A stretch of DNA of 52,064 bases, from IMG/VR virus record IMGVR_UViG_3300047409_000754, positions 1 through 52,064 of that record; one strand, written 5' to 3'. The position numbers and the translations under genes are program-made. Under the pieces are notes generated by a model. It was not told the origin of the DNA, made no database searches, and worked only from the letters and a program-made list of their open reading frames with translations. The DNA is from a virus (Duplodnaviria; Caudoviricetes). This document shows positions 20,867-32,460 of this stretch, piece by piece (the stretch's first letter is position 1; every line of letters starts with the position of its first letter).

Positions 20867-22398
20867 GAGAGACCTTCCATTTCCTCGAACGAGATGAGGC
20901 CGAGGGTCGCGCCCGGATACACGCGCCGCGCCAGCTTCGCCCCGGAGGACTTGACCAGCATGTCCTCTGGGTTCTTCCTCCAGCCAGTTCCGTCCTTCTT
21001 CAGAAGGCCGGCGAGCTCAGCCTGTTCGATGGTGAACGTGACCCTGGTCGAGCCTGGATTCCGGCGGTTCTTCGTTTCCCAGGTGGCCTTGGTTGCGCTC
21101 GCCTCGACGGGGTAAAAGTACTGGCAGTTGGGGTCGCGCTCGGCGAGGTGGATGATCAGATAGGCGTAGGGATACGGCTTCCCGTCGATGATGTGGAAGA
21201 CGTCAAGCGCCGCGGCCGACGGAATGCCCATCGACCGGCCGCGGATGATCGTCGCCAGGACCGACTCCCACGTCGGGAACTTCGAATAGATGCGCGAGTT
21301 GAACAGGTGTTTTGCTAGCGTCACGGCGCCGCTCGGGTCGCGCGGCTCCAGCGCGCGCTCGAACTCGACGGGCTGCGCTGGGATGACCGTAAGCTGGGTC
21401 GGGGCGGGCGCCGGGGTCGGTTCGTCCTTCACCTCGACGCGCTCGGCTGTCACCTCGGGGATGGGCGTTGCCGCGGGAGCCGGCGCGGCGGGCGACGGGA
21501 TCGACCCAGGCCCCTTGCTGATCGGGATGTCGTCGCTTTCCATGTCGTCGTTCTCCTCTGCTTTGACGAGCGGTTTCTTCGTGCGGGTCGCGTAGATCTC
21601 GCGGAAGTCGAACGGAACGTTCGTCCGCAGCTCGACGAGCTTGCGCGCGAGGCGCACGTCGGCCTCGGCCAGGTCGATGTTGGTCACGAACTTCGCGACC
21701 TCCTTGCCGCCGCTCTTGGATCCGACGTTCAGCGGGTCGGCGCTGATCTGGACGTAGAGCGCGTTCAGGTTTCCGAATCTCGTCAGCACGTCCGTTGCCG
21801 TCTTCGGGCCAACGTCGGGCGCCCCCTTGATCTCGTCGCTGGTGTCGCCGACGAGCGCAAGCCAGTCGCCGAGTTGCGCCGGCCGCACCCCGAACTTAGC
21901 CACCATCGCGGCTTCGTCCCACGTCGACCAGTCGTGCGTCCGAAGCTGCGTCACGCCGGGCCGAAGGAGCTGCATCAGGTCCTTGTCCGCCGAGCAAATC
22001 AGAACCTCGTGGCCAAGCGAGAGCGCCGTCTCGCATGCCGTGGCGATGACGTCGTCGGCTTCGTATCCATCGGCGCCCCAGATCAGGAACCCGTCGTAGC
22101 GCAGGCGCTCCTTGACCCGGTCAAGCGTCGCGTAGAAGTCGTTCCCGAGCTTCTCGCGCTTCGCCTTGTACGTCGGCGCCATCTCCTTGCGCCACGATTT
22201 GCGCGAGTCCATGCAGACCGCCACGAGCGATCCCTGGCTCGTGTTCGCGCAGCGCCACACAGCTTCGACGGTGGCCTGGTAAGCGACGCTGAGCGGTCCG
22301 TTCTCGTTCGCGCGCCATGCCGGGTGGAACAGCGACGAAAGGTCAATCAGGACGACCCGACGCACCTCGGACGGCACGGCCTGAGGCGCGGCAGTCAT
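20863..22398 (-). CDS. 5'-3' exonuclease fused to a RecT-like annealing domain
   Basis: N-term LID, YEADDVI, SADKDL, GDTSD..GAPDVGPKTA (H3TH); C-term GRSMGI..IIDGKP..AGL..WRKNPEDML. Confidence 0.75.
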   Translation of the reverse strand: MTAAPQAVPSEVRRVVLIDLSSLFHPAWRANENGPLSVAYQATVEAVWRCANTSQGSLVAVCMDSRKSWRKEMAPTYKAKREKLGNDFYATLDRVKERLRYDGFLIWGADGYEADDVIATACETALSLGHEVLICSADKDLMQLLRPGVTQLRTHDWSTWDEAAMVAKFGVRPAQLGDWLALVGDTSDEIKGAPDVGPKTATDVLTRFGNLNALYVQISADPLNVGSKSGGKEVAKFVTNIDLAEADVRLARKLVELRTNVPFDFREIYATRTKKPLVKAEENDDMESDDIPISKGPGSIPSPAAPAPAATPIPEVTAERVEVKDEPTPAPAPTQLTVIPAQPVEFERALEPRDPSGAVTLAKHLFNSRIYSKFPTWESVLATIIRGRSMGIPSAAALDVFHIIDGKPYPYAYLIIHLAERDPNCQYFYPVEASATKATWETKNRRNPGSTRVTFTIEQAELAGLLKKDGTGWRKNPEDMLVKSSGAKLARRVYPGATLGLISFEEMEGLS

Positions 22399-23396
22399 CT
22401 ACCCGCTCCAGCCGGGCAGCTAGGATCCGAGCCGTGGCAGATCGCGCATTCTTTGCGCGGCGGCCGAGTAGGCTCACGGCGCTGATACCGAAGCGGGTCC
22501 TGATAGTAGAACCTCTCCCAAGTCCTATCGAACGGATCAAATACGGGCGATGACGTCCTCGGCGGCACGCACGGCATCTCCATCAATCGAGCGATATCCG
22601 GAGACGGAACGACAGGCGCGGGCCTGAACGGTTTGCTGAGCAATGACCGCAACAGATCGGCGCCGTCGATGGACGGAGCATCGCTCACGTTCCCCTCTCG
22701 TTTAGGAGATTCCGCAGCCATGATCCTAAGACTCCTTTCCCGTGCGCGTCGCGGCCGAACCCGCGCCGAAGATCAGGTCCAGAAGAGAATCGAGCGAGGC
22801 GCGCGGCGCCGTCTTCGAAGCCGAGCTGTGCTCCAGTCGGCGGCGCACGATGCAGGCCGTGCAATCGCAGTCGTCGACCGCGATCTTGGCGGCCGGCGCC
22901 GCTGCTTCCTTCGGCACGGGCAAGCCGAACTTCTCCGCCTCGGAGCGGACCTTGGCGGTCGTCGTCTCGACGAACTTGTCGATCGCGTCGTACTCGGGCA
23001 CAAGCCCTGCCGGGACATCCGTCCCGGCCGCGCGCATCTCGTTCCGAAACGCGACCACCATCTGGCCCTTGCGGTACATGTCCGCGATCATCGGCGTGAT
23101 CTCCAGCAGCGCACGGATCGCAAACTTCGTGTCGTTCCCAAGTTTCATGTCGTCTCCCTTTCGTCCTCATCCCTCGGTTCCAACGCCGCCTGGACCGCCC
23201 AGGCCTGCGCAGTGAGTCGGCTCCTCGGCGTCGAGACGACCGCCTGGATCTCGTAGTTGCCCATCAGGCCCGCGACGATGTTCCGCGCGCGCTCCATCGC
23301 CTGGCCGGTGGTCATGGCGACGCCGTCGCGCTCGCGCAGGACCAGAATCCCGTCGGTGATGTCGGCGACCAGGTCTTCGAGCAGGGCGGCGGTCAT
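22395..23396 (-). other. Small hypothetical ORFs (22395-22721, 22726-23148, 23145-23396)
   Basis: Coupled ORFs with RBS. Confidence 0.5.
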
Positions 23397-23599
23397 GCTT
23401 CCCTCGGCTGCATCGCGGCGCGCATCGACGCCCGGTTCACGAACACGAAGTAACCGACGCGCACGCCGCGGACGCGCTTCGTCTTGATCCAGCCGGCGAT
23501 CGTCGTGCGCGGCTGGCCGAACGCTTTGGCGGCGACGCCGATCGGGATGAACCCGGTCCGACGGAGGCGAGCCACGATCTGCGGGTTCGGGCGGCCCAT
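23393..23599 (-). CDS. Excisionase/MerR-like HTH protein
   Basis: IPIGVAAKAFGQPRTTIAGWIKTKRVRGVRVG winged-helix pattern. Confidence 0.6.
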   Translation of the reverse strand: MGRPNPQIVARLRRTGFIPIGVAAKAFGQPRTTIAGWIKTKRVRGVRVGYFVFVNRASMRAAMQPREA

Positions 23600-23927
23600 C
23601 AGCCCACCCACCCCAAGCAGCGGACGATCGTCATCGCGACGCCGTAGCCCGCGAGCGCCCCCAGCGTGGCCCAGAGGAAGAGCGCGCCCGTGAACCTCAC
23701 AGCCCGCACCATCCGTAGGCCACGATCGCGGCGAGGGCCAGCCACCAGAGCAGCGTCTCGCAGAACGCCTGCCGGATCAGCGCCGGCACGTCGCGCCATC
23801 CGAATCTCACGGTAAAACCGCCAGTGTCGTCAGTTGCGTCATGTCCGTTATCCAATACGCCGAAGCGTGAAAACGTGCGTTTTTGGGCTGTTGATGATTG
23901 TTGATGAACGGCTGTTGTCCGACGGGG

Positions 23928-24419
23928 TTATTCCCCGCGCTCGGCCGCTTCGATCTCTTCTTCTTCGCAGCCGGGGCACTTCTCGTTCCTCGGGTGCCGC
24001 ACGGCGTGCGCCTGGCAGATGGCGGTGAGCAGGTCCATCCGGATGCGCGTCCCGACCTCGTACCCTTCGAGGTAGCGGCGGAAGGCGTTGCCGAACCGCT
24101 CCGGGCGGCTGGCGGTCTTCGCGATGCCGTCCTGCACCCCCTCGGAGAGCGGCATCGAGCCGCCCAGTACCTCGGCGCACGCGGCCCAGATGTGCGGCGT
24201 CCGCGGCTGGCAGAGCAGCACGAGCGCGCCGACGGGGCTCACTTCGTCGACGCTCGGATCCTTGCGCCACGGCACGCGCGACTCGCGGCTGACGCAGATG
24301 ACGCCGGGCGCGTCGACGGCGCCGACGGGGATGCCTTCGACGCGCGCCCAGGAGAGCGCGCCGCGCAGCAGGGTAATCGGCGAGGGGCTGGCGAACTGGG
24401 ACGTGACGATGCCGGCCAT
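23928..24419 (-). CDS. Hypothetical protein
   Basis: MAGIVTSQF..., GGAGG RBS. Confidence 0.55.
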   Translation of the reverse strand: MAGIVTSQFASPSPITLLRGALSWARVEGIPVGAVDAPGVICVSRESRVPWRKDPSVDEVSPVGALVLLCQPRTPHIWAACAEVLGGSMPLSEGVQDGIAKTASRPERFGNAFRRYLEGYEVGTRIRMDLLTAICQAHAVRHPRNEKCPGCEEEEIEAAERGE

Positions 24420-24688
24420 CACGACACCTCCAGCAGGGCGAGCATCTGCGCGTCCGTGAGCGTCGTCTCCTGGACGGTCTCGTCCTCGGGCGCGCCGCAG
24501 GTCGGGCAGAGCGGGATCTTCTGGCCGCCGTCCTCGATCACCACCGCGTCGGCGTGCTTGATCACCTCGCCGCAGCCGTGGCAGGCGACCGTCCCGCAGT
24601 AGAAGCACGACCCATCCTCGTCGAGGGGGTCGCGGCAGTCCGGGCAGGCGGGCGCCCAGCCGTCGCACTCGTCACCGGAGAGCGACAT
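24419..24688 (-). CDS. Small Cys-rich (Zn-finger) protein
   Basis: Four CxxC motifs. Confidence 0.55.
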   Translation of the reverse strand: MSLSGDECDGWAPACPDCRDPLDEDGSCFYCGTVACHGCGEVIKHADAVVIEDGGQKIPLCPTCGAPEDETVQETTLTDAQMLALLEVS

Positions 24689-24858
24689 CAGTGCACCACC
24701 GGCGTGTTGAGCTTGAGGAACAGCTTCGCGGCCGTCGTGACCGCGCAGCAGCGGATGCAGATGTAGTTCCGCGTCGCGCCGTGGAGCCCGAGCCGGCCGC
24801 CGCAGTCGCAGAGGATGCCGGCGACGAATCCCTGTCGGTCTGTTTTCACCTTGGACAT
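24688..24858 (-). CDS. Small Zn-finger protein (56 aa; not in the ORF track)
   Basis: MSKVKTDRQ...CDCGG...CIRCC; ATG 6 nt after the -10; stop overlaps the next ATG. Confidence 0.55.
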   Translation of the reverse strand: MSKVKTDRQGFVAGILCDCGGRLGLHGATRNYICIRCCAVTTAAKLFLKLNTPVVH

Positions 24859-24864
24859 GGTTCT

Positions 24865-24937
24865 AATCTAATCTATTTGAACCTGGCGTCAACAGATTCT
24901 TTTCGGTGCTAGTAGATTTTCCCTTTGGCCCTATACT
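24865..24937. promoter_or_regulatory. Divergent promoter region (genetic-switch-like)
   Basis: Minus: TTGACG-N16-TAGATT (24892-24865); plus: TATACT at 24932-24937, 7 nt before ATG 24945. Confidence 0.6.
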
Positions 24938-24944
24938 GGGCCGC

Positions 24945-25130
24945 ATGGCCAAGCCCCTAAAGAAGCGACGCAAGCCCGAATCCGAGCGGAAGGAGAACGG
25001 CATCACGGTCTGGTTCACTGGCGCCGACGAGGCGCTGGTCAAGCGCGCTGCGGCAAAGGCCGGCGACCCGGTCACTCACTGGATGCGCAAGGTGATCGTG
25101 AAGGCGGCGAAGGCGGAGGCCGAGGAATGA
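24945..25130 (+). CDS. Ribbon-helix-helix DNA-binding protein (candidate repressor)
   Basis: GITVWFT strand followed by two helices (EALVKRAAAKAG, VTHWMRKVI). Confidence 0.65.
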   Translation: MAKPLKKRRKPESERKENGITVWFTGADEALVKRAAAKAGDPVTHWMRKVIVKAAKAEAEE

Positions 25131-25429
25131 GCGCGCACAGCGCCGGGCCGTGGCAGTCAAACGGTCGCAGCGTGTGTGATGTGGACGGGCGCAGCATCGC
25201 TGCCGCGCACGAATGGGATACGCGCCCTCACGACCGATTCGTTCGGGCCAGGCAGAACGCTATCGTGCTCGCGAATGCCCGCCTCATTGCCGCCGCGCCC
25301 GAGATGTTTGAACTGCTGCGCAGGATGGCCTGCGATTGCGTGTGCGAAGAGGCCAACGGCAACGCGCGAATTGACCTGCGCGGTATGGCGGATGCCTTGC
25401 TCGCCCGCATCGACGGGGAGACGCCGTGA
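25127..25429 (+). CDS. Phage hypothetical protein (HTPGPW/ANARLIAAAP family)
   Basis: HSAGPW...ANARLIAAAPEMFELL. Confidence 0.7.
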   Translation: MSAHSAGPWQSNGRSVCDVDGRSIAAAHEWDTRPHDRFVRARQNAIVLANARLIAAAPEMFELLRRMACDCVCEEANGNARIDLRGMADALLARIDGETP

Positions 25430-25904
25430 CGCTTGCCGATTTCATCGACAGACACCTCGTCGCCCTGTGCGTCCAGGGCTGGGTTCTGTTCATCTGCATC
25501 TGGCCTGTCTGGGCGATCAAGAAGATCGGAAAGATGCTGTGAGCCCGACCAGCCCTGACTACCCGCGCGGGACGCACGCAGGACCGGACGAAGGGTCCGA
25601 GCGGTGCCGAGCCTGCCCGCGCACGAAAGCAGAGCATCCGGTGCCGTGCGAGTGCCTAGAGCATCAGAAGCGCGGCGGCGGCGTCTCGATGTGCTTCACG
25701 TGCACGGAGTGCCGGGAGTTCGATGGCGAGTTGACCGGACGCTCGACCAGGTCGTTCATCGCGCTTTCGTGGGCGCCGTGCCCGTGCGGAGACACGGGCC
25801 TCATCGGACACGGCGACGGGAAATATACGTGCCCTGGCTGCGGCGCGAAGCTCGCGCCGGTAATGTATAGAACGGGCCCGTGACCTGTGCGAAGCTCCGA
25901 CCCC

Positions 25905-26315
25905 ATGCCCGTCCGCGCTCTTGCCGTCCTGGTCGCCGTGCTCGCCCTCTCGGGCTGCATCGGTTCGCTGAATGACTCGGTCGCGCCACCGGTGCCGCCA
26001 GAGCAGCCAGCGCCGCCGGTGGTCGGGCACTGGCTCCTCGATGCGCCCGCCGGCGACGAGCCGCAAACGCTTTGGATCGAGGCCGACGGGACCTATACCG
26101 CGATGAGCTCGGCCGCGCTTTCGATCGATTCGATCTCGTTTCTGTCGAGCGGGACCTGGGACTTTTCGCGCCCGACGCTGACCACGCACGACGCGAAGAA
26201 CGGCGACCGTTCCTACTTCGTCACGTTCGGGACCGATGGCGGGTTGCTGCTGCGCAGGACATCGACTGGCCAGTCGTGGTCATTCCATCCCGAGCAGCTC
26301 GACGCCGGGCCATAG
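25905..26315 (+). CDS. Lipoprotein
   Basis: Signal peptide with lipobox LSGC. Confidence 0.65.
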   Translation: MPVRALAVLVAVLALSGCIGSLNDSVAPPVPPEQPAPPVVGHWLLDAPAGDEPQTLWIEADGTYTAMSSAALSIDSISFLSSGTWDFSRPTLTTHDAKNGDRSYFVTFGTDGGLLLRRTSTGQSWSFHPEQLDAGP

Positions 26316-26325
26316 CCCGACGCGC

Positions 26326-27162
26326 TTACTGACCGCCGTAGAATGAGATCTGCGACCCGGTCGCCTGCGGGGTCACGGTGAGGTTGCAGCCCGGGATGGA
26401 CACGCCCGCGTAATTGACGAAGGCGGGGTTCTGGTAGCTCGACGGCACAAACTGCACGTAGTGCGTGACCCCATCGACGGTCACGTAATAGTCGGTGTAC
26501 GACTGCACGCTCAAGTTGTTGGCCTGGGTCGCCCTCGGCAAGTCGCCCCAGCAATTGTGCCGGTTGGCTGGAATCAGAGGCTGCCACGTCGAGTCGGCGA
26601 GCATCTCGATGTAGGGCTTCTCGAAGGCGTCCACGTACGGACCGCTGTAGTCCACCCTGAGGTCGCGCGTGCCGTAGGGATACACGCCGCTGCCGTTGTC
26701 GTCGTAGATCTCGATGTACTCCGCCCCGTGCGCAATCGCATTGGCTGTGCCGGGGCCGAACCACGCCCAAGTGATCCGATCGCCGGGGTACGCTTTGAGC
26801 GAAGTGATCGGATCCCAGTTGACCCCCATGTTCTGCCCGACGGCTTCGACGTTGTAACCCCAGACCCATCGAGGCGGGAACGAGCCCGGGATGAGGACGC
26901 TCTCGGAGTTGAACGAGAAGTACATGGCCTCCCCAACGTTCGCGTTCTGATGAACCTGGAATTGCTGGATGACCTTCGAGATCGTGCCCGGGTTCTTCGG
27001 CGGAGGAGGCAAAACGTTCGCTTGCACGAAGCTGATGATCTGCTGTCCGGCGGGCAAATAGACAGCGTGATCCGAAGATGCATAGAGAGTCGTGCCTGTC
27101 GCCGACGAGGTGACTGGCAGGAGCAGAAGCGCGAGCGCGAGAAGGATTCGTTTGATGGTCAT
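26326..27162 (-). CDS. Secreted/periplasmic protein (278 aa)
   Basis: MTIKRILLALALLLLPVTSSA signal peptide; beta-rich; directly downstream of the tRNA array. Confidence 0.65.
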   Translation of the reverse strand: MTIKRILLALALLLLPVTSSATGTTLYASSDHAVYLPAGQQIISFVQANVLPPPPKNPGTISKVIQQFQVHQNANVGEAMYFSFNSESVLIPGSFPPRWVWGYNVEAVGQNMGVNWDPITSLKAYPGDRITWAWFGPGTANAIAHGAEYIEIYDDNGSGVYPYGTRDLRVDYSGPYVDAFEKPYIEMLADSTWQPLIPANRHNCWGDLPRATQANNLSVQSYTDYYVTVDGVTHYVQFVPSSYQNPAFVNYAGVSIPGCNLTVTPQATGSQISFYGGQ

Positions 27163-27200
27163 CGTGATCGTTGCCTTTCGTTGGTTTGGCCCGGGGACAG

Positions 27201-27276
27201 TGGAGCTGACGGCCGGCATCGAACCGGCAGCCTCCGCTTTACCGAAGCGGCGTTCTTCCTCTTGAACTTCGTCAGC
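27201..27276 (-). tRNA. tRNA-Thr(GGT)
   Basis: Cloverleaf, CCA encoded. Confidence 0.85.
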
Positions 27277-27277
27277 G

Positions 27278-27349
27278 TGGTGCCCCGGGCGGGATTCGAA
27301 CCCGCGCGCCGCTTTTAGGAGAAGCGGTCCGATCCATCCGGACCGGGGC
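27278..27349 (-). tRNA. tRNA-Arg(CCT), reduced D arm
   Basis: Acceptor, anticodon and T arms intact; CCA encoded. Confidence 0.75.
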
Positions 27350-27350
27350 G

Positions 27351-27875
27351 TCATGTCTCCAGCGCCGTCGACCAGTACGGCAGCCACTCCGCCGGCATCG
27401 GTCCCGACCCCATGCGCACGGTCACCGTCGGCAGGTAGTGCGGCTTCTTTGGGCGCGCGCGCAGCTCGAGCCCGGCTTCGGCCGGCGTGCGGTCGGCCTT
27501 GTCGCTGTTGCAGTCGACGCAGCACGTGACGATGTTCTCCCAGCACGTACGACCCCCGCGGCTGCGCGGGATCACATGATCGAAGGTCAGGTCTTCGGTC
27601 GGCTTGCGCGCGCCGCAGTACTGGCAGGCGAAGCCGTCGCGCGCGTAGATGTTAAGCCGCGAGAACTTGATCCGAATCCGGTCGCGGCGGAAGCGCCGCA
27701 CGACGCGCACAACCGACGGCATCGGCACCGCGCGCGACACCGTTTGGATCGTCCGGTCGCGGCTGTGCTCGACCACCTCGACCTTCCCGAGGAAGAGGTC
27801 CGAGATCGCGCGCTGCCAGCTTTCGACGCGAAGGGGGCGGTAGTCGACATCCAGGAACAGCACGGCGGCGGACAT
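27351..27875 (-). CDS. HNH endonuclease (McrA-like)
   Basis: RDGFACQYCG, LTFDHVIPRSRGG, NIVTCCVDCNSDK; AAGGAG RBS. Confidence 0.9.
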   Translation of the reverse strand: MSAAVLFLDVDYRPLRVESWQRAISDLFLGKVEVVEHSRDRTIQTVSRAVPMPSVVRVVRRFRRDRIRIKFSRLNIYARDGFACQYCGARKPTEDLTFDHVIPRSRGGRTCWENIVTCCVDCNSDKADRTPAEAGLELRARPKKPHYLPTVTVRMGSGPMPAEWLPYWSTALET

Positions 27876-27890
27876 CGGATCTCCTTTGGT

Positions 27891-27966
27891 TGGTGGGCCC
27901 GCCCCGATTCGAACGGGGAACACGGCCGGTTTGAGCGGCCTGCCTCTGCCGTTGAGCTACGGGCCC
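27891..27966 (-). tRNA. tRNA with CAA anticodon (Leu?) lacking the long variable arm
   Basis: GGCCG-CTCAAAC-CGGCC, 5-nt variable loop, CCA encoded. Confidence 0.75.
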
Positions 27967-27968
27967 GA

Positions 27969-28055
27969 TGGTACGCGTGACTGGATTCGAACCAGCATTG
28001 GGCTTTCGCCACACGGTTTCTAAGACCGTTGAGTAGACCGTTCCTCCACACGCGC
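27969..28055 (-). tRNA. tRNA-Leu(TAG)
   Basis: Long variable arm, CCA encoded. Confidence 0.85.
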
Positions 28056-28060
28056 GTGCG

Positions 28061-28132
28061 TCTCGGCGCCTGGAATCGAACCAGGTTCGTCCGCTTATAA
28101 AGCAGCCGCACGCACCAGCGTGCTACGCCGAG
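28061..28132 (-). tRNA. tRNA-Ile(TAT)
   Basis: Anticodon loop TT-TAT-AA, cloverleaf. Confidence 0.7.
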
Positions 28133-28133
28133 A

Positions 28134-28207
28134 TGGCGCTGCGTACGGGGATCGAACCCGTCTCACTCGGGAGACAACCGAGCCGCGCCCCAGGCGCGTC
28201 ACGCAGC
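28134..28207 (-). tRNA. tRNA-Asp(GTC)
   Basis: Cloverleaf, G73, CCA encoded. Confidence 0.8.
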
Positions 28208-28212
28208 AGAAG

Positions 28213-28281
28213 TACCGCCGGCGGGAGTCGAACCCGCAGGTCCTCGGTTCGGAGCCGGGGATCCGATCCATCGGCGACGGC
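28213..28281 (-). tRNA. tRNA-Arg(CCG), reduced D arm
   Basis: CT-CCG-AA loop, T arm intact. Confidence 0.7.
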
Positions 28282-28282
28282 G

Positions 28283-28353
28283 TACGCCCGGAGAGATTCG
28301 AACTCTCAAAGGCCGCCTTAGAAGTGCGGCTGCCGTCCGATCGGCGCGGGCGC
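28283..28353 (-). tRNA. tRNA-Arg(TCT), atypical
   Basis: CT-TCT-AA loop with a 31-39 mismatch. Confidence 0.65.
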
Positions 28354-28358
28354 GGAAA

Positions 28359-28808
28359 TCAAGCTCCGGGAGAAGGACTCGCACCTTCACTTCTCGGCGT
28401 AACAGGCCGGCGTGCTGCTTTGACACTATCCCGAAAAAACTGATGTTGGGCGGAACAGGATACCGAGCAAAAAAGAAACCCTCGCTTTGAGTGCTTGAGC
28501 CTCCAGCGCGCCCTGTTCGGCCGAAGCTTGAATTCTGTTTCGCACGTTGGGCAAATCGTCACGACCGATGGCGGAGCGCGCTCCAGTGAGTGATCGCGGG
28601 TATGTTCCGCCACCGTCTTCAATTCGAAATTGTCGAACCGATTGTCGCGTTTGTTCTCGTTCTTGTGGTGGATCAACTCGCCGGGCCTCGGCACCGTTCC
28701 GGTGTGCTGCCACCACACGAGATGATGTTCATAGCAGTACCGCCCGCGGTATTTCTTGCCCGGGTACTCGGCCGGCGCGATCACCAATTCGTAGGGGCCG
28801 TTCCGCAT
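28359..28808 (-). CDS. HNH homing-endonuclease-like protein with Zn finger
   Basis: YEHHLVW...IHHKNENKRDNRFDNFEL; CPTC...FCSVSC. Confidence 0.85.
   Translation of the reverse strand: MRNGPYELVIAPAEYPGKKYRGRYCYEHHLVWWQHTGTVPRPGELIHHKNENKRDNRFDNFELKTVAEHTRDHSLERAPPSVVTICPTCETEFKLRPNRARWRLKHSKRGFLFCSVSCSAQHQFFRDSVKAARRPVTPRSEGASPSPGA
28364..28435 (-). tRNA. tRNA-Asn(GTT)
   Basis: CT-GTT-AC loop, TGCGAGT T-loop; lies inside the 3' end of the HNH ORF. Confidence 0.75.
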
Positions 28809-28860
28809 AATTCGACCCGTTAGGGAACGCGATGCCGGTTGTCCAGAGCCAAGTTAACGG

Positions 28861-28930
28861 AGCCGATCCGCAGAATCGAACTGCGCCGAGTGAGGTACAA
28901 ATCCCCTCGAGCTGCCCAGAGACGATCGGC
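28861..28930 (-). tRNA. tRNA-Thr(TGT), degenerate
   Basis: Acceptor and T arm good; anticodon stem poorly paired. Confidence 0.5.
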
Positions 28931-28931
28931 G

Positions 28932-29024
28932 TAACGGGGGCCGGAGTCGCACCGGCTTTCTCCAGGTTATGAGCCTGGCGAGATTTGGACGGCTCGAGGC
29001 CGCCCTCTGTTTCTCCACCCCGCA
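28932..29024 (-). tRNA. Initiator-like tRNA-Met(CAT) with an extra hairpin in the D loop
   Basis: 1:72 mismatch, CCAGG-CTCATAA-CCTGG, D-loop insert GGGCGGC-CTCGA-GCCGTCC. Confidence 0.65.
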
Positions 29025-29025
29025 G

Positions 29026-29097
29026 AGCTTCCGCCGAGAATCGAACTCGGTTCTTCCGGGTACGGGCCGGATGCGTCGCCAGCAACGCTTCAGAAGC
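29026..29097 (-). tRNA. tRNA-Thr(CGT)
   Basis: Cloverleaf; C at position 33. Confidence 0.75.
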
Positions 29098-29105
29098 ACG
29101 AACTC

Positions 29106-29174
29106 GGCCGGCGCGCGCGCCAGAACGTCGAGGGGGAGTACCTCGACGGAGGAACCAGCACTACGCGACCGGCC
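29106..29174 (-). ncRNA. Non-tRNA hairpin RNA, possibly Y-RNA-like
   Basis: GGCCGG/CCGGCC outer stem; GTGCTGG/CTGGCGC helix followed by TTCCTCC; apical 8-bp stem. Confidence 0.35.
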
Positions 29175-29185
29175 TTCTTTTTCAG

Positions 29186-29256
29186 AGCACGGTGCGGGAA
29201 TCGAACCCGCGTTGCCTGCTTGGAAGACAGGATCTCAGCCACTAAGACAACCGTGC
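29186..29256 (-). tRNA. tRNA-Gly(TCC)
   Basis: Cloverleaf, U73. Confidence 0.85.
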
Positions 29257-29260
29257 ATTG

Positions 29261-29332
29261 AGCGACCAGCGGGAGTTGAACCCGCTCTCTCGGACTGGCA
29301 GACCGATGTGCAGCCACAAACACCTTGGTCGC
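29261..29332 (-). tRNA. tRNA-Gly(GCC)
   Basis: Cloverleaf, U73. Confidence 0.8.
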
Positions 29333-29333
29333 G

Positions 29334-29408
29334 TGGAGGACGATCGCGGAATCGAACCGCGGATTGCGGAGGTTGCAGCTCCGTGCCTTGCCACTTGGCG
29401 AATCGTCC
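29334..29408 (-). tRNA. tRNA-Cys(GCA)
   Basis: Cloverleaf, U73, CCA encoded. Confidence 0.9.
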
Positions 29409-29413
29409 GTGAG

Positions 29414-29497
29414 AGGAGAGGGCGGGGATCGAACCCGCGCGACTGTCGTCGGCCTCGGTTTAGCAAACCGGCATCGTTACCACTCGATCACCTCTCC
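29414..29497 (-). tRNA. tRNA-Ser(GCT)
   Basis: Long variable arm. Confidence 0.85.
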
Positions 29498-29498
29498 G

Positions 29499-29567
29499 TA
29501 CCAGCGGGCGGTGTTGATCCGCCCAAGCAGCCCGTATGAAAGGCCGCCGCGCGCCGGCGCCGCTGGC
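29499..29567 (-). tRNA. tRNA-Met/Ile2(CAT), atypical
   Basis: TT-CAT-AC loop, ATCAACA T-loop, reduced D arm. Confidence 0.55.
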
Positions 29568-29571
29568 GTCG

Positions 29572-29641
29572 TACCCCCGAGAGGATTCGAACCTCCAGAG
29601 CCTGCGTTCGTAGCGCGGGCCGCCTTCCAATCGCCGGGGGC
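29572..29641 (-). tRNA. tRNA-Arg(ACG), reduced D arm
   Basis: CT-ACG-AA loop. Confidence 0.7.
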
Positions 29642-29642
29642 A

Positions 29643-29720
29643 TGGTCACCTGTGCGGGATTTGAACCCGCGTCTCCTGGATGAGAACCAGAGATCCTAAG
29701 CCGGACTAGACGAACAGGTG
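29643..29720 (-). tRNA. tRNA-Glu(CTC)
   Basis: Cloverleaf, CCA encoded. Confidence 0.85.
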
Positions 29721-29721
29721 A

Positions 29722-29795
29722 TGGTCACGCGTGCGGGTGTTGATCCCGCCTCGCCGGATTGAAAGCCCGGCTGCCTCACCGGAAGCGAACGCGTG
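29722..29795 (-). tRNA. tRNA-Glu(TTC)
   Basis: CT-TTC-AA loop, ATCAACA T-loop, CCA encoded. Confidence 0.7.
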
Positions 29796-29798
29796 TTG

Positions 29799-29882
29799 AG
29801 GAGAGCTGAGGAGTCGAACCCCCAACCCGAAGGTTGCCCCCGGTGTTCGAAACCGGTTGGCGCCCGCGCGCCGGAACTCTCC
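29799..29882 (-). tRNA. tRNA-Ser(CGA)
   Basis: Long variable arm with UUCG loop. Confidence 0.75.
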
Positions 29883-29886
29883 GTTG

Positions 29887-29954
29887 CGCACCGTCGAGGT
29901 GTCGATCCCCGTTGACAGGTTTTGGAGGCCCGTCTGCTTGCCGAAGCACAGTGC
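29887..29954 (-). tRNA. tRNA-Trp(CCA), atypical
   Basis: CT-CCA-AA loop, G73, ATCGACA T-loop, short D arm. Confidence 0.6.
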
Positions 29955-29959
29955 AATCG

Positions 29960-30028
29960 TGGACCGCCCGAGAGTTGAACTCGGCACTCAGATCTTGCAA
30001 GGATCCGATGCGCCCCGGCGCGCAGCCC
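29960..30028 (-). tRNA. tRNA-Ala(TGC), reduced D arm
   Basis: G3:U70 identity pair, CT-TGC-AA loop. Confidence 0.7.
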
Positions 30029-30162
30029 GTGGACCCCGTTACGGGGGTCAGTCGTTCCGGACGCGGATTTCCCCGACCGGACGTCAGGGTGAGTGCCGCA
30101 ACCCGAAGGTTGCACCGAGAGGCAGGTGCGCCGCGCTTCCGTGTTCCTCTCGGCATGGCGAG

Positions 30163-30234
30163 TCTGCGCGGGGTGAATCGAACACCCGATCTCCTCGTCC
30201 CAAGCGAGGCGCCTTTCCACTAGGCTACGCGCAG
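30163..30234 (-). tRNA. tRNA-Pro(TGG)
   Basis: Cloverleaf, C1:G72, A73. Confidence 0.85.
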
Positions 30235-30244
30235 ATGCTTCCAG

Positions 30245-30317
30245 GGTGACCGCCCGGTTTCGATCCGGGACCTCGACGTTCACAGCGTCGAATGCAGAGC
30301 CACTACACCACGGCCAC
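30245..30317 (-). tRNA. tRNA-His(GTG)
   Basis: C73; no genomic G-1; ATCGAAA T-loop. Confidence 0.75.
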
Positions 30318-30319
30318 AG

Positions 30320-30390
30320 TTCCCGCAGATGGATTCGAACCACCGTTGCCTGGGTCAGAACCAGGGAGCCTGCCGCTAGCTGATGCGGGA
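30320..30390 (-). tRNA. tRNA-Gln(CTG)
   Basis: U1:A72, TT-CTG-AC loop. Confidence 0.8.
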
Positions 30391-30391
30391 G

Positions 30392-30463
30392 TAGAGGCGG
30401 GAGGATTCGAACCTCTCGTCGGGCGGTAATCGGCCGCCTGCACTGCCATTGTGCTACGCCTCC
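30392..30463 (-). tRNA. tRNA-Ile(GAT)
   Basis: Cloverleaf; CC-GAT-TA loop. Confidence 0.75.
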
Positions 30464-30469
30464 GTGCTG

Positions 30470-30540
30470 TCCGAGCTGGGGGAATCGAACCCGCGTCTCC
30501 GGTTTGTAGGACCGGGGCCCTCCCATTGGACGAAGCTCGG
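30470..30540 (-). tRNA. tRNA-Val(TAC)
   Basis: CC-TAC-AA loop, A73. Confidence 0.75.
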
Positions 30541-30612
30541 GGAAACTGCGGCGCGGACTTGGGTTGCGTCCGCCTTGCGTCGATGCGCTCTTGAGACCAG
30601 CATCAAACCAGG

Positions 30613-30686
30613 TGCCCCGCCGCGGAATCGAACCGCGCCCTCCGCGTTTTCAGCGCAGCGCTCGTCACCTCGAGAGCTTGCGGGGC
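30613..30686 (-). tRNA. tRNA-Phe(GAA)
   Basis: Cloverleaf. Confidence 0.85.
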
Positions 30687-30726
30687 ATTGTCGGCGGGGT
30701 TGGTCGCCCCGCCACCTTCACGTCAA

Positions 30727-30763
30727 CTATTTAGTTGTCAGAGAATCGCCGGTGCTACCGGCG
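30727..30763 (-). promoter_or_regulatory. rrn-type boxB/boxA-like antitermination site
   Basis: Hairpin CGCCGGT-AGC-ACCGGCG followed by TTCTCTGACAACTAAATAG. Confidence 0.5.
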
Positions 30764-30767
30764 TTTG

Positions 30768-30837
30768 TTCGAGGGGAAGGGGTCGAACCTTCACCAACCG
30801 CTTCAAAGGCGGTCTGCCTGCCGTTAGCTACCCTCGA
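30768..30837 (-). tRNA. tRNA-Gln(TTG)
   Basis: U1:A72, CT-TTG-AA loop. Confidence 0.8.
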
Positions 30838-30850
30838 TCGTTTCCATTTG

Positions 30851-30922
30851 TGAGCCGCCGGCGACTTGAACGCCGCTGTCCTGATTAAGAGTCAGGTCCC
30901 TCGCCATCTAGGGGTGCAGCCC
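30851..30922 (-). tRNA. tRNA-Lys(CTT)
   Basis: CCTGA-CTCTTAA-TCAGG. Confidence 0.85.
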
Positions 30923-30968
30923 GTTGTCTCTGCCGTTAGGGAAGGTTCTCCTTTCTGTCAACCTGCTG

Positions 30969-31041
30969 TGCCTCGAGTCGGATTCGAACCGACGATTCAG
31001 CGCTTAAAAGGCGCGGGTGATTGCCGCTTCACTACCGAGGC
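30969..31041 (-). tRNA. tRNA-Lys(TTT)
   Basis: CT-TTT-AA loop, cloverleaf. Confidence 0.85.
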
Positions 31042-31046
31042 TGAAG

Positions 31047-31129
31047 TGGGCGGCCCAGGAATCGAACCTGGTAGGGGATCTCCCCGGCTGCTTTACAGGC
31101 AGTTGCCCCGACCATGAGGCGCGTCGCCC
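31047..31129 (-). tRNA. tRNA-Tyr(GTA)
   Basis: Long variable arm; first gene of the array. Confidence 0.85.
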
Positions 31130-31160
31130 AAACGAAAAAAGGCCGCCCCGGTGGGCAGCC
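31130..31160 (-). terminator. Intrinsic terminator (attenuator) directly upstream of the first tRNA
   Basis: GGCTGCCC-ACCG-GGGCGGCC-TTTTTTCGTTT. Confidence 0.8.
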
Positions 31161-31191
31161 CTGATCGCGTTCTCGAGATTGTTGCCTCGAC

Positions 31192-31350
31192 TTACACGAC
31201 CGGCCGCCCTTCCCCTTTGGCCCTGAACTCTTGGGAATACGAGATCAGGGCTGACGGGAGCGTGGCGTTCTGATCCTTGCGGACGCGCGGCAACGCCGCG
31301 GAGGCGGTATGCCCCTGCTGCGCCATCGACCATGTCCGCGAGCTCGTCAT
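31192..31350 (-). CDS. Putative 52-aa leader (attenuator) peptide
   Basis: MTSSRTWSMAQQGHTASAALPRVRKDQNATLPSALISYSQEFRAKGEGRPVV*; last five codons complementary to the terminator 5' arm. Confidence 0.6.
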   Translation of the reverse strand: MTSSRTWSMAQQGHTASAALPRVRKDQNATLPSALISYSQEFRAKGEGRPVV

Positions 31351-31359
31351 TGCCAACCC

Positions 31360-31388
31360 AAGGTGAACGGACGAAACGCGGGCGTCAA
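31360..31388 (-). promoter_or_regulatory. Putative sigma70 promoter of the tRNA operon
   Basis: TTGACG-N17-CACCTT, 9 nt before the leader ATG. Confidence 0.5.
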
Positions 31389-31397
31389 GCGGAAAGT

Positions 31398-31907
31398 TCA
31401 GGCGACGCGCAGATAGCCCGCGAGTTTGCGGGCCTGCGGGAACGGGAACCCGCGCTCAACGACCGCGTTGCCCTCGCGCGCGCCCTCAAGATTCGTGTTG
31501 CCCGCAATGACCTCGATCGAAGCCAACTCGGCGCCGACGCGCGTCACACCGGTGATGATTCCGACGTGCCCCTTGCCGCCGCCATGGTCCCAAACGACCA
31601 GCCCGCCCATCTCTGGCTCGGCAATGACCAGGTCGTGATTCAGCTCGAGCAACCGCAGTGCGCCGGCGCTGTAGCGCAGATGCGTGACGATCCCCATCGC
31701 GCGCGCGGCGTCGTGAATCTGCGCGCTCGCGAACGCCGCGCACCACAGGGCCGGCTGCATGATCCCGCGCTCGGCAAGCCACTCGCGGATCATCGGCCCA
31801 TCGTTGGGGCCGTCGGTCTCCAGCGACTTGCCGATCGCGTACCGGCGCGCGTTGGCGATCGTGAGCTCGGCGAGGCCTGGAACGGGGCCGATCACGGGTG
31901 CCACCAA
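31398..31907 (-). CDS. CHAP-domain endolysin
   Basis: WCAAFAS, GHVGII, IAGNT. Confidence 0.8.
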   Translation of the reverse strand: MVAPVIGPVPGLAELTIANARRYAIGKSLETDGPNDGPMIREWLAERGIMQPALWCAAFASAQIHDAARAMGIVTHLRYSAGALRLLELNHDLVIAEPEMGGLVVWDHGGGKGHVGIITGVTRVGAELASIEVIAGNTNLEGAREGNAVVERGFPFPQARKLAGYLRVA

Positions 31908-31992
31908 GGCATCCGCATCGGGTAGGACCGTGAGCCCTGGACGTCACCGATCAGGAACCAGTATCGAGGCCCATGCGAGCGACAAGAACGCG

Positions 31993-32460
31993 TCACGGGT
32001 GCGCCACCGACCACGCCTGAAGATGGTTCATCATCAGCGCCTCGGCGGGCGGCGGGGATGGGGGCCGACGCAGCGCCAGCAGCTCGCTGGCGGACGCCTT
32101 GATCACGCAGAACTCCTTGTTGATCGCCCCCGGCGATAGCGCCGCCTCATAGTCTTCGCCGACGGCGGCCAAGCCAACGTCGAAGAGATCCTGCGTCGTC
32201 ACGTTGCACTTCGCCTCGACGGCGGCCAGGTGCGCGCAGCCGATCGCATGGGCCCCGACGACGCTCACGAAGACGGCGAACAGCAGATTGACGGCGCCGT
32301 TGGTGTCGAGCTTGGCGAAGGCTTTGCGGGCGTCAGCGATCAGCAGCGCCAACGCGCCGCCGATCGCCGCGTACCTTGGGATCGCGGACAGCACGGACGC
32401 GACGACCGTTGCGCCGCCGAGAACGACGAGAGCGAGATGGGCGAGTCGAGATTTCATCAT
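31993..32460 (-). CDS. Membrane protein (holin/spanin-like)
   Basis: Two to three hydrophobic segments, next to the lysin. Confidence 0.5.
   Translation of the reverse strand: MMKSRLAHLALVVLGGATVVASVLSAIPRYAAIGGALALLIADARKAFAKLDTNGAVNLLFAVFVSVVGAHAIGCAHLAAVEAKCNVTTQDLFDVGLAAVGEDYEAALSPGAINKEFCVIKASASELLALRRPPSPPPAEALMMNHLQAWSVAHP

Follow-up and report, generated by a model that had tools for sequence, protein, structure and literature searches.

A 52-codon reading frame that encodes almost every amino acid ends inside a predicted terminator/antiterminator switch directly in front of the tRNA gene cluster of a phage (Duplodnaviria; Caudoviricetes), and related clusters share this design. We suggest that the element is a ribosome-dependent transcription attenuator that senses general aminoacyl-tRNA supply and gates phage tRNA genes. 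The anatomy of the element, its conservation, the covariation of the antiterminator, the retention of the frame and the amino acid completeness are seen in the sequences, whereas translation of the ORF, activity of the terminator in the unknown host, and the direction and trigger of the switch are inferred without expression data. We hold this reading with moderate confidence.

Results

Anatomy of the leader

The element lies on the minus strand of the IMG/VR record IMGVR_UViG_3300047409_000754, of which the whole stretch of 52,064 nt, here called the window, was analyzed. The original prediction described a promoter-like site, a leader ORF, a terminator and a pairing between the last codons of the ORF and the terminator 5′ arm, and all of its coordinates and counts were confirmed (Table 1).

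Table 1. Features of the leader and the tRNA array in the window.
Feature	Coordinates	Strand	Description
Promoter-like site	31360..31388	-	TTGACG (-35) at 31388-31383, 17-nt spacer, CACCTT (-10-like) at 31365-31360, then 9 nt to the ATG
Leader ORF	31192..31350	-	ATG at 31350, TAA at 31194-31192; 52 codons plus stop
Hairpin inside the ORF	31220..31251	-	Just upstream of the antiterminator 5′ strand; possible RNA polymerase pause hairpin (inferred)
Antiterminator 5′ strand (A)	31194..31209	-	Last five codons plus first base of the stop codon; 31209-31202 have the same letters as the terminator 3′ arm
Inner hairpin (P2)	31173..31190	-	6 pairs and a 6-nt loop, directly after the stop codon
Antiterminator 3′ strand (B)	31153..31170	-	31170-31163 pairs with 31201-31194; 2-nt bulge; 31160-31153 pairs with 31209-31202 and is also the terminator 5′ arm
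Intrinsic terminator	31131..31162	-	5′ arm 31162-31153, loop 31152-31149, 3′ arm (C) 31148-31139, T-run 31140-31135, further T-rich tail to 31131
First tRNA genes	30968..31129	-	tRNA-Tyr(GTA) at 31129-31046 and tRNA-Lys(TTT) at 31041-30968
Second promoter-like site	30933..30961	-	In a 45-nt spacer between the two tRNA-Lys genes
Rest of the tRNA array	27201..30922	-	26 tRNA genes with two embedded HNH endonuclease genes

The terminator was the top hit of a terminator scan (10 pairs, 7 of them G-C; -18.3 kcal/mol). The promoter-like site is a consensus match only and was not listed by a strict sigma-70 scan, but it is placed so that transcripts would start at or within a few nucleotides of the ATG, giving a leaderless mRNA. 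The alternative pairing of A with B, two blocks of 8 pairs around the bulge that enclose the inner hairpin, is the minimum-energy fold of the nascent RNA and excludes the terminator, and 13 nucleotides are paired in both predicted states. Strand A is the best partner of the terminator 5′ arm among 350 upstream segments. For the 66-nt segment containing the hairpin inside the ORF, z = -3.2 and 0 of 300 shuffles were as stable.

Considered in the window alone, however, the antiterminator is no better than chance. Sequestration of the terminator 5′ arm was matched or beaten in 172 of 1000 shuffles. With 138 nt or more of upstream context the equilibrium probability of the terminator is 0.97–0.98, and 209 of 600 shuffles were as low or lower, hence any switch must be kinetic. 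By contrast, an ORF of this length ending at this place arises in only 0.6–0.9% of shuffles, and GC3 of the ORF is 0.85 compared with 0.58 and 0.58 at codon positions 1 and 2.

The design is conserved at the start of tRNA arrays

The main support comes from comparison. The same module was found in 13 other loci (12 further distinct sequences), giving 14 loci, 13 distinct sequences and about six clades with 49–63% GC in the element, each at the start of a tRNA array; individual loci are designated by L numbers below. In 14 of 14 loci there is an ATG ORF of 46–64 codons, its stop ends 62–71 nt before the end of the U-rich tail, the 3′ end of A lies -1 to +4 nt from the first base of the stop codon, and 7–14 nucleotides of B are paired in both states. 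A ribosome at the end of the ORF would thus be positioned to mask one strand of the antiterminator. An ORF of 45 or more codons ending at this place arises in 0.8–1.4% of shuffled leaders. GC3 is the highest of the three positions in 13 of 14 ORFs, the exception being L074, and in 11 of 14 loci a TTGAC motif starts 34–39 nt before the ATG (38 nt in the window).

In five of five loci folded, at 75, 110 and 200 nt of upstream context, the nascent RNA adopts the antiterminator, and an inner hairpin appears at the same place. The best partner of the terminator 5′ arm among about 340–350 upstream segments is the one ending at the stop codon in 4 of 5 loci. As a MAFFT alignment of the elements was not consistent with the structure, they were realigned with a covariance model, and in this alignment 8 of 10 antiterminator pairs change on both sides and 83.5% of cells are paired. 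The covariation score is 0.268 compared with 0.100 (sd 0.025) in shuffles, none of 500 shuffles reached it, and slid controls scored 0.083 or less, although it should be noted that the alignment was fitted to the structure of the model and that two of its rows are partial. The terminator helix is paired in 84.7% of cells and a U-rich tail is present in all rows; columns 100–110 serve the antiterminator and columns 101–110 the terminator. Covariation of the inner hairpin is weak. A hairpin comparable to the one inside the ORF is seen in L043 and in L123, L037 and L102, but not in L022, L029, L047, L141, L074 or L104.

Amino acid content of the ORF

The ORF of the window contains 19 of 20 amino acids (no Cys; P = 0.035), and all 20 occur in each of the 13 other ORFs. 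Against open shuffles of each ORF, P is 0.026–0.11 for the clade representatives, and the Fisher combined p is 3e-4 for six clades and 1e-3 for five clades without the window. The test is modest for each sequence, and sequences within a clade are related. Against windows taken from long ORFs, P for all 20 amino acids is 0.3–2%, and three unrelated ORFs in front of tRNAs have 15, 17 and 17 amino acids. There is no run of one codon and many amino acids are present only once. The complete set lies upstream of the last five codons in all five loci checked. Trp, Tyr, Cys and Pro sit at different alignment columns in relatives.

The original prediction also stressed the variety of codons and the number of rare ones, and here it needs trimming. 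The ORF has 33 distinct codons, which equals the random expectation of 32.7, and codon variety is not above random in the relatives except in L047. The codons singled out as rare (ACA, TTG, TCA, TAT, CAA, AGG and AAA) are indeed rare in the genes of this phage, at 1.3–5.6 per 1000, but the rare-codon count and the codon adaptation index of the ORF lie only at about the 9th percentile of windows taken from these genes. What stands out, in addition to amino acid completeness, is the use of both codons of the Lys, Gln and Glu boxes and of both codon families of Arg and Leu, a measure that was defined after seeing the data. The codons of the ORF are no more readable by the tRNAs of the array than expected (40 of 52 codons, compared with 46 of 61 codon types).

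Substitutions are even over codon positions in 10 of 10 pairs, for example 21/19/23. This absence of a third-position excess suggests that being translated matters rather than the peptide itself. The peptides nevertheless share a weak core motif, which could mean a function of the peptide or a constraint on the RNA.

Searches for further relatives

A BLAST search with positions 30900–32000 gave no match in phage records, and the array, as well as the leaders of L029 and L021, matched only tRNA genes. The lysin of the phage had no match in phage records, and its two relatives in viral contigs (L002 and L003) have no tRNA and no leader. The ORF peptide had no relative in viral contigs in a search by peptide patterns, and matched only itself among 5.8 billion clustered proteins in the length band searched (28–91 residues). 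Scans with a 26-nt stretch of tRNA-Tyr and with a variant T-arm pattern found no new leader, and a scan of named genomes mostly hit ordinary chromosomal tRNA-Tyr genes. A model search of 151 genomes of one phylum gave 10 weak matches, of which nine are ordinary gene-end terminators and one (L168) is a shorter variant. A 5,324-letter contig matches 31126–31369 of the window with 25 other letters and 2 gaps, followed by 268 different letters in place of 30848–31126.

No Rfam family reached its gathering threshold for the leader in scans of its neighborhood, which found only tRNA matches at E up to 1 in the window and up to 5 in L029 and L021, and no T-box match. A weak sub-threshold match to one small-RNA family in L029 (25.1 bits against a gathering score of 39) covers the hairpin and terminator.

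Discussion

We suggest that transcription starts at or next to the ATG, and that the last five codons of the leader ORF (A) pair with B as the RNA emerges. This antiterminator would form first and let RNA polymerase run into tRNA-Tyr and tRNA-Lys(UUU). If a ribosome follows the polymerase closely and reaches the stop codon at the junction of the two hairpins, it would cover A and the inner hairpin, leaving B free to pair with C, so that the terminator forms and transcription ends at the T-run, 6 nt before tRNA-Tyr. As the ORF holds (almost) every amino acid and both members of codon pairs that are read by different tRNAs, a shortage of any charged tRNA would slow the ribosome and raise read-through. 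In this way the module would work as a homeostat, with the phage tRNA genes off when translation is fluent and on when it falters. The core of this reading, a leader ORF whose last codons form an antiterminator that competes with a terminator in front of the tRNA genes and which samples the amino acids, was set up by the original prediction from the window alone and passed an independent test on the relatives found here, whereas translation, termination and a response to tRNA damage are inferred.

Some observations speak against this model. None of the ORFs has a clear Shine-Dalgarno sequence, and the model needs leaderless or Shine-Dalgarno-independent initiation, while in L022, L029 and L047 a tRNA-Met lies between promoter and ORF, 7–45 nt before the ATG. 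Without a ribosome the default is read-through, so repression would need a tight coupling of transcription and translation that is unproven. Furthermore, the second promoter-like site in the window could, if active, drive the other 26 tRNA genes independently of the attenuator, and the attenuator may therefore gate only tRNA-Tyr and tRNA-Lys(UUU) exclusively. The corresponding spacer is only 4–9 nt in the 9 related arrays examined.

Alternatively, the two helices could alternate under the control of a trans-acting factor, such as a protein, a small RNA or a tRNA that binds the inner hairpin or its loop, in which case the open frame would be irrelevant. The nucleotide-level conservation without a codon-position pattern, the conserved blocks within the leader, the similar loop motif in the inner hairpin of the window, L029 and L043, and the lack of a Shine-Dalgarno sequence would fit this option. 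We consider it unlikely, since the frame is kept open in 14 of 14 loci although the sequences are nearly unalignable between clades, the stop codon sits at the same structural place in every locus, the distance from promoter to ATG is conserved in 11 of 14 loci, no T-box or other Rfam family matches, and amino acid completeness only has meaning if the frame is translated.

Somewhat less likely still, the ORF could be an ordinary small gene with its own terminator, the tRNAs being made by leaky read-through or from other promoters and the alternative pairing being incidental. A gene followed about 30 nt later by a terminator is the commonest arrangement, GC3 is coding-like, a gene caller at the source called a 44-aa product, the peptides share the weak core, and the shuffle tests on the window alone are not significant. 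On the other hand, there is no third-position excess in 10 of 10 pairs, no homolog was found outside this context in the searches described above, and the three-way complementarity is conserved with covariation. The module also travels with tRNA arrays rather than with the upstream genes, as the closest relative phage, with a lysin about 80% identical, lacks both the array and the leader. A role as a processing or stability element is the least likely. The long irregular hairpin (about 22 stacked pairs), the need to process tRNA precursors and a second group of arrays in which a strong hairpin without a U-tract precedes tRNA-Tyr would fit it, but it does not explain why strand A matches the terminator 3′ arm in every clade, the U-rich tail in 14 of 14 loci, or the conserved ORF and its content.

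Leader-peptide attenuators of amino acid operons, such as trpL, hisL and the ilv leaders that respond to several amino acids, appear to share with the element a short leader ORF, a terminator whose 5′ arm can instead pair with an upstream strand, a choice of helix set by the position of the ribosome, and a distance of about 55–70 nt from stop codon to U-tract. The main departure from this classical family is the absence of a cluster of regulatory codons, with all 20 amino acids (19 in the window) present about once or a few times each. In addition, the ORF is probably three to four times longer, there is no evident anti-antiterminator, the mRNA appears to be leaderless, and the genes controlled are phage tRNA genes rather than biosynthetic genes. 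The pyrBI leader of E. coli, with 44 codons, likewise seems to couple its outcome to how closely the ribosome follows the polymerase, but there a close ribosome would prevent the terminator and the signal would be UTP-dependent pausing. In the leaders of erm, vmlR and msr/mef resistance genes and of the Pseudomonas MexXY regulator (PMC9226507, PMC4335068, PMC13041342), a stalled ribosome on a short ORF switches on downstream genes that relieve the translational stress. Those leaders respond to drugs through particular arrest contexts and control resistance proteins, whereas here the composition of the ORF points to a shortage of any aminoacyl-tRNA and the remedy encoded downstream is the tRNAs themselves. 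T-box riboswitches also appear to report on tRNA charging through an antiterminator/terminator choice, but probably bind one uncharged tRNA directly, without an ORF, and control synthetase or biosynthesis genes.

Why phages carry tRNA sets has been debated for decades, and how these sets are regulated is essentially undescribed; we found no published description in full-text searches, nor any mention of terminators, attenuation, leaders or promoters in the two papers on the subject that we searched for them. If our reading holds, it shows that the arrays are inducible rather than constitutive, extends classical attenuation from sensing one amino acid to sensing all of them, provides a simple, portable genetic part that reports global aminoacyl-tRNA supply, and links tRNA arrays to translational stress such as tRNA-cleaving defenses, starvation or host shut-off. 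More tentatively, and with somewhat less than even likelihood, phage and other mobile tRNA arrays could carry a dedicated sensor of translation health, a leaderless ORF built to contain every amino acid and both members of codon pairs read by separate tRNAs. When any host tRNA is depleted, uncharged or cut, for example by a defense nuclease acting on tRNA-Tyr or tRNA-Lys, the ribosome would lag and the replacement tRNAs of the phage would be transcribed, and when supply is restored the array would shut itself off. This would be the first attenuator known to control tRNA genes and the first to sense all amino acids at once. Phage tRNA sets have been studied as a counter-measure to tRNA-cleaving defenses and as tRNA array units carrying an embedded HNH gene (PMC10264068, PMC11555353, PMC13096335, PMC12409363, PMC12803027), work that concerns what the tRNAs do. 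The array described here is likewise large, with embedded HNH endonuclease genes, and its first genes are tRNA-Tyr and tRNA-Lys, species named in those studies as targets of defense nucleases.

Organization of the leader and the tRNA array

The virus record is a complete 52,064-bp record of about 67% GC, with nearly all genes on the minus strand, and a tRNA array with two embedded HNH endonuclease genes lies downstream of a lysin-like gene. Every element of the original prediction, namely a promoter-like site, a short ORF, an intrinsic terminator in front of tRNA-Tyr and an alternative pairing of the last five codons with the 5′ arm of the terminator, was found to be present, and the counts of 19 amino acids and 33 different codons in the ORF were also correct.

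Positions of the predicted attenuator and of neighboring features in the window
Feature	Position	Strand	Remarks
Lysin-like gene	31907-31398		169 aa; directly upstream of the array
Promoter-like site of the leader	31388-31360		
Leader ORF	ATG at 31350, TAA at 31194-31192		52 codons
Stable hairpin inside the ORF	31251-31220		z = -3.2
Predicted antiterminator, 5′ strand (A)	31209-31194		Last five codons; 8+8-pair helix with B, enclosing a 6-pair inner hairpin
Predicted antiterminator, 3′ strand (B)	31170-31153		Uses the 5′ arm of the terminator
Predicted intrinsic terminator	31162-31135		10 pairs, 7 of them G-C; best hit of the terminator scan
tRNA array	31129-27201		28 genes; tRNA-Tyr starts at 31129
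Second promoter-like site	30961-30933	-	In a 45-nt spacer between tRNA-Lys(TTT) and tRNA-Lys(CTT); perfect -35 hexamer, 17-nt spacer, -10-like hexamer
Sub-threshold tRNA match	28932-29004	-	23.4 bits against a gathering score of 29; not called by ARAGORN
HNH endonuclease gene	28359-28808	-	
HNH endonuclease gene	27351-27875	-	
Stretch without counterpart in the closest relative	22400-31398		Includes the array and leader

The window alone does not prove a switch. Upstream sequestration of the terminator arm was matched in 172 of 1000 shuffles, and at equilibrium the full leader forms the terminator with a probability of 0.97–0.98, with 209 of 600 shuffles being as low or lower. Furthermore, 33 codons is the random expectation, the rare-codon content is only at about the 9th percentile of gene windows, and no homologue of the ORF was found. 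In favor of a real ORF are a GC3 of 0.85 against 0.58 and 0.58 at the other two codon positions, and the low chance (0.6–0.9%) of an ORF this long ending at this place.

The closest relatives were not informative with regard to the leader. Two viral contigs encoding a lysin about 80% identical carry no tRNA genes and no leader, and homology to the window resumes only at 22398. The closest relative, a complete 52,967-bp phage (L004), has a different 5.5-kb segment in place of the whole stretch 22400-31398, which includes the array and leader, and no tRNA genes at all. The array with its leader is therefore a module that this phage has and its nearest known kin lack.

A family of related leaders

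The HNH gene at 27351-27875 has a 51% identical relative inside another tRNA array on a 137-kb viral contig, located at the same relative place, after the tRNA-Leu genes (locus L005). At the head of that array (loci L021/L022) a 210-nt spacer precedes tRNA-Tyr and tRNA-Lys(UUU), and contains a 46-codon ORF, a long hairpin with an inner hairpin just after the stop, and a terminator-like hairpin with a U-rich tail, followed by the tRNA. A pattern for this kind of tRNA-Tyr found 12 stretches in viral contigs, 90 in metagenome contigs and 29 in named genomes, and among these the leader recurs in front of tRNA-Tyr in the loci L029 (also L033, L050, L107), L047 and L043. A covariance model built on the five elements was then searched over 22 and subsequently 100 loci, and found the same module at the very start of a second, high-GC group of arrays (L141, L074, L104/L109, L123, L037, L071, L063 and L102). 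In this group the tRNA-Tyr lies further down, behind an HNH gene, a close homologue that sits directly upstream of tRNA-Tyr.

The 14 loci (13 distinct sequences) share an ATG ORF of 46–64 codons, a stop that ends 62–71 nt before the end of the U-rich tail, an antiterminator 5′ strand that ends -1 to +4 nt from the stop, and 7–14 nucleotides that are paired in both the predicted antiterminator and the predicted terminator. In 11 of 14 loci a TTGAC motif starts 34–39 nt before the ATG (38 nt in the window), which predicts a transcript that starts at or next to the ATG. In the other three loci a tRNA-Met lies between promoter and ORF. In L037, L123, L141 and L071 an A-rich run of 6–8 A lies directly upstream of the -35 element.

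The two competing helices are supported by several analyses. The nascent RNA, cut before the 3′ arm of the terminator, folds into the antiterminator in 5 of 5 loci at three context lengths, and in 4 of 5 loci the best partner of the terminator 5′ arm anywhere in about 350 nt upstream is the window that ends at the stop codon, the exception being L022, whose shared segment is short. On the model-fitted alignment the outer helix of the antiterminator has 8 of 10 pairs with changes on both sides, and its score of 0.268, against 0.100 (sd 0.025) in shuffles, was reached by 0 of 500, whereas slid controls scored 0.083 or less. It should be noted that this alignment leans towards the model, that two rows are partial, and that one is misaligned. 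The terminator helix is paired in 84.7% of cells but varies less, with 2 of 10 pairs changed on both sides. The 3′ strand of the antiterminator (columns 100–110) and the 5′ arm of the terminator (columns 101–110) occupy the same alignment columns.

Possible translation and content of the leader ORF

Four indirect lines of evidence suggest that the ORF is translated. The frame stays open in every locus although the clades are barely alignable, and shuffled leaders give such an ORF in only about 1% of cases; the distance from promoter to ATG is conserved; GC3 is the highest of the three positions in 13 of 14 ORFs; and the content of the ORF is unusual, as described below. On the other hand, no ORF has a clear Shine-Dalgarno sequence, and substitutions are spread evenly over codon positions in 10 of 10 pairs. 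The peptide sequence is therefore not under ordinary protein-level selection, which is what one would expect of a leader peptide, but also of an untranslated RNA.

The original prediction pointed to the presence of 19 of 20 amino acids in the ORF of the window, and the relatives provide an independent test of this idea: all 13 contain all 20. Against open dinucleotide shuffles of each ORF the probability is 0.026–0.11 per clade representative, with a combined p of 3e-4 for six clades, or 1e-3 without the window, and against windows of long ORFs from these contigs P(all 20) is 0.3–2%. Three unrelated ORFs that happen to end in front of other tRNAs, which came from 293 tRNA-upstream gaps among the 986 tRNAs examined, have 15, 17 and 17 amino acids. 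The full set lies upstream of the last five codons, which is where a stalled ribosome would leave strand A free. Within clades, Trp, Tyr, Cys and Pro occupy different alignment columns in different members, which looks like loss at one place made good at another. The A-ending codons AAA, CAA and GAA occur in 12, 13 and 12 of 13 distinct ORFs, usually once each, and both Arg families occur in 12 of 13 and both Leu families in 13 of 13. A five-point score for these features is 5 of 5 in the window (P = 0.0005) and 3–5 elsewhere, with a combined p of 2e-4, or 0.017 without the window; as we defined this score after seeing the data, it is only suggestive.

A possible ribosome-dependent attenuator of tRNA genes

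As the most likely mechanism, we suggest that transcription starts at the ATG and that a ribosome loads on the leaderless RNA. If the ribosome keeps pace and reaches the stop, it would cover strand A and the inner hairpin, so that B pairs with the 3′ arm of the terminator (C) and the polymerase terminates 6 nt before tRNA-Tyr. If the ribosome instead lags at any codon for want of a charged tRNA, A would pair with B first and the polymerase would read into the tRNA genes. We speculate that the stable hairpin inside the ORF, which has counterparts in three of six clades, could be a pause site that synchronizes the two machines. The anatomy, its conservation and the content of the ORF are supported by the comparisons described here, whereas translation, termination, and the direction and trigger of the switch are inferred. 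The interpretation in the original prediction gains strong comparative support, although it has not been tested by experiment. We consider it more likely than not that the element is a ribosome-dependent attenuator, while the full picture of a sensor of all amino acids that induces replacement tRNAs remains a tentative one.

In its proposed mode of action the element resembles the leader-peptide attenuators of amino-acid operons and has their structural elements, but it lacks one defining feature, a cluster of codons for a single amino acid. It also differs from them in its target (tRNA genes), its ORF length, its apparently leaderless start, and its predicted default state of read-through. 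It is not a T-box and matches no Rfam family. In concept it is also close to attenuators that sense general ribosome stalling by antibiotics. In the literature accessible to us, including two papers on phage and plasmid tRNA arrays, we found no description of a leader, terminator or attenuator for a tRNA array.

In the window, the scope of the attenuator may be limited by the second promoter-like site, the -10-like hexamer of which resembles those in front of chromosomal tRNA-Tyr genes of some named alphaproteobacteria. The nine related arrays examined have only 4–9 nt at this place. If the site is active, the attenuator alone governs only tRNA-Tyr and tRNA-Lys(UUU), species that have been named as targets of defence nucleases (PMC13096335; PMC11555353; PMC12409363).

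A 5,324-letter contig of another run (X4) holds the leader (31126-31369 of the window) with 25 other letters and 2 gaps, followed by 268 different letters where the window has tRNA-Tyr and the two tRNA-Lys genes, and the same leader therefore heads a differently composed array. The sub-threshold tRNA match in the window may be a degenerate 29th tRNA gene. A small Cys- and His-rich ORF with a strong Shine-Dalgarno sequence is conserved inside the high-GC arrays, in the spacer after tRNA-Lys(CTT) (L035, L063, L102, L058, L071, L055, L123), but is not present at that place in the window. In L035, L037, L063, L071, L080, L102, L074, L100, L104, L108 and L109 a strong G+C-rich hairpin without a U-tract immediately precedes tRNA-Tyr, within about 20 nt upstream and behind the HNH gene, and it is kept even where the HNH gene is absent (L080). 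A conserved structured RNA lies between tRNA-Met and the HNH gene in L037, L102 and L063, about 60–250 nt after tRNA-Met; one hairpin shows compensatory changes between loci, and there is a T-arm-like stem-loop. It may be an unusual tRNA-like gene that ARAGORN does not call. Finally, a shorter variant of the leader was found in one genome of a sampled phylum (L168), with a 29-codon ORF with a Shine-Dalgarno-like sequence, the same antiterminator/terminator arrangement, and a U-tract 9 nt before a tRNA-Ile, Pro, Gln, Cys cluster.
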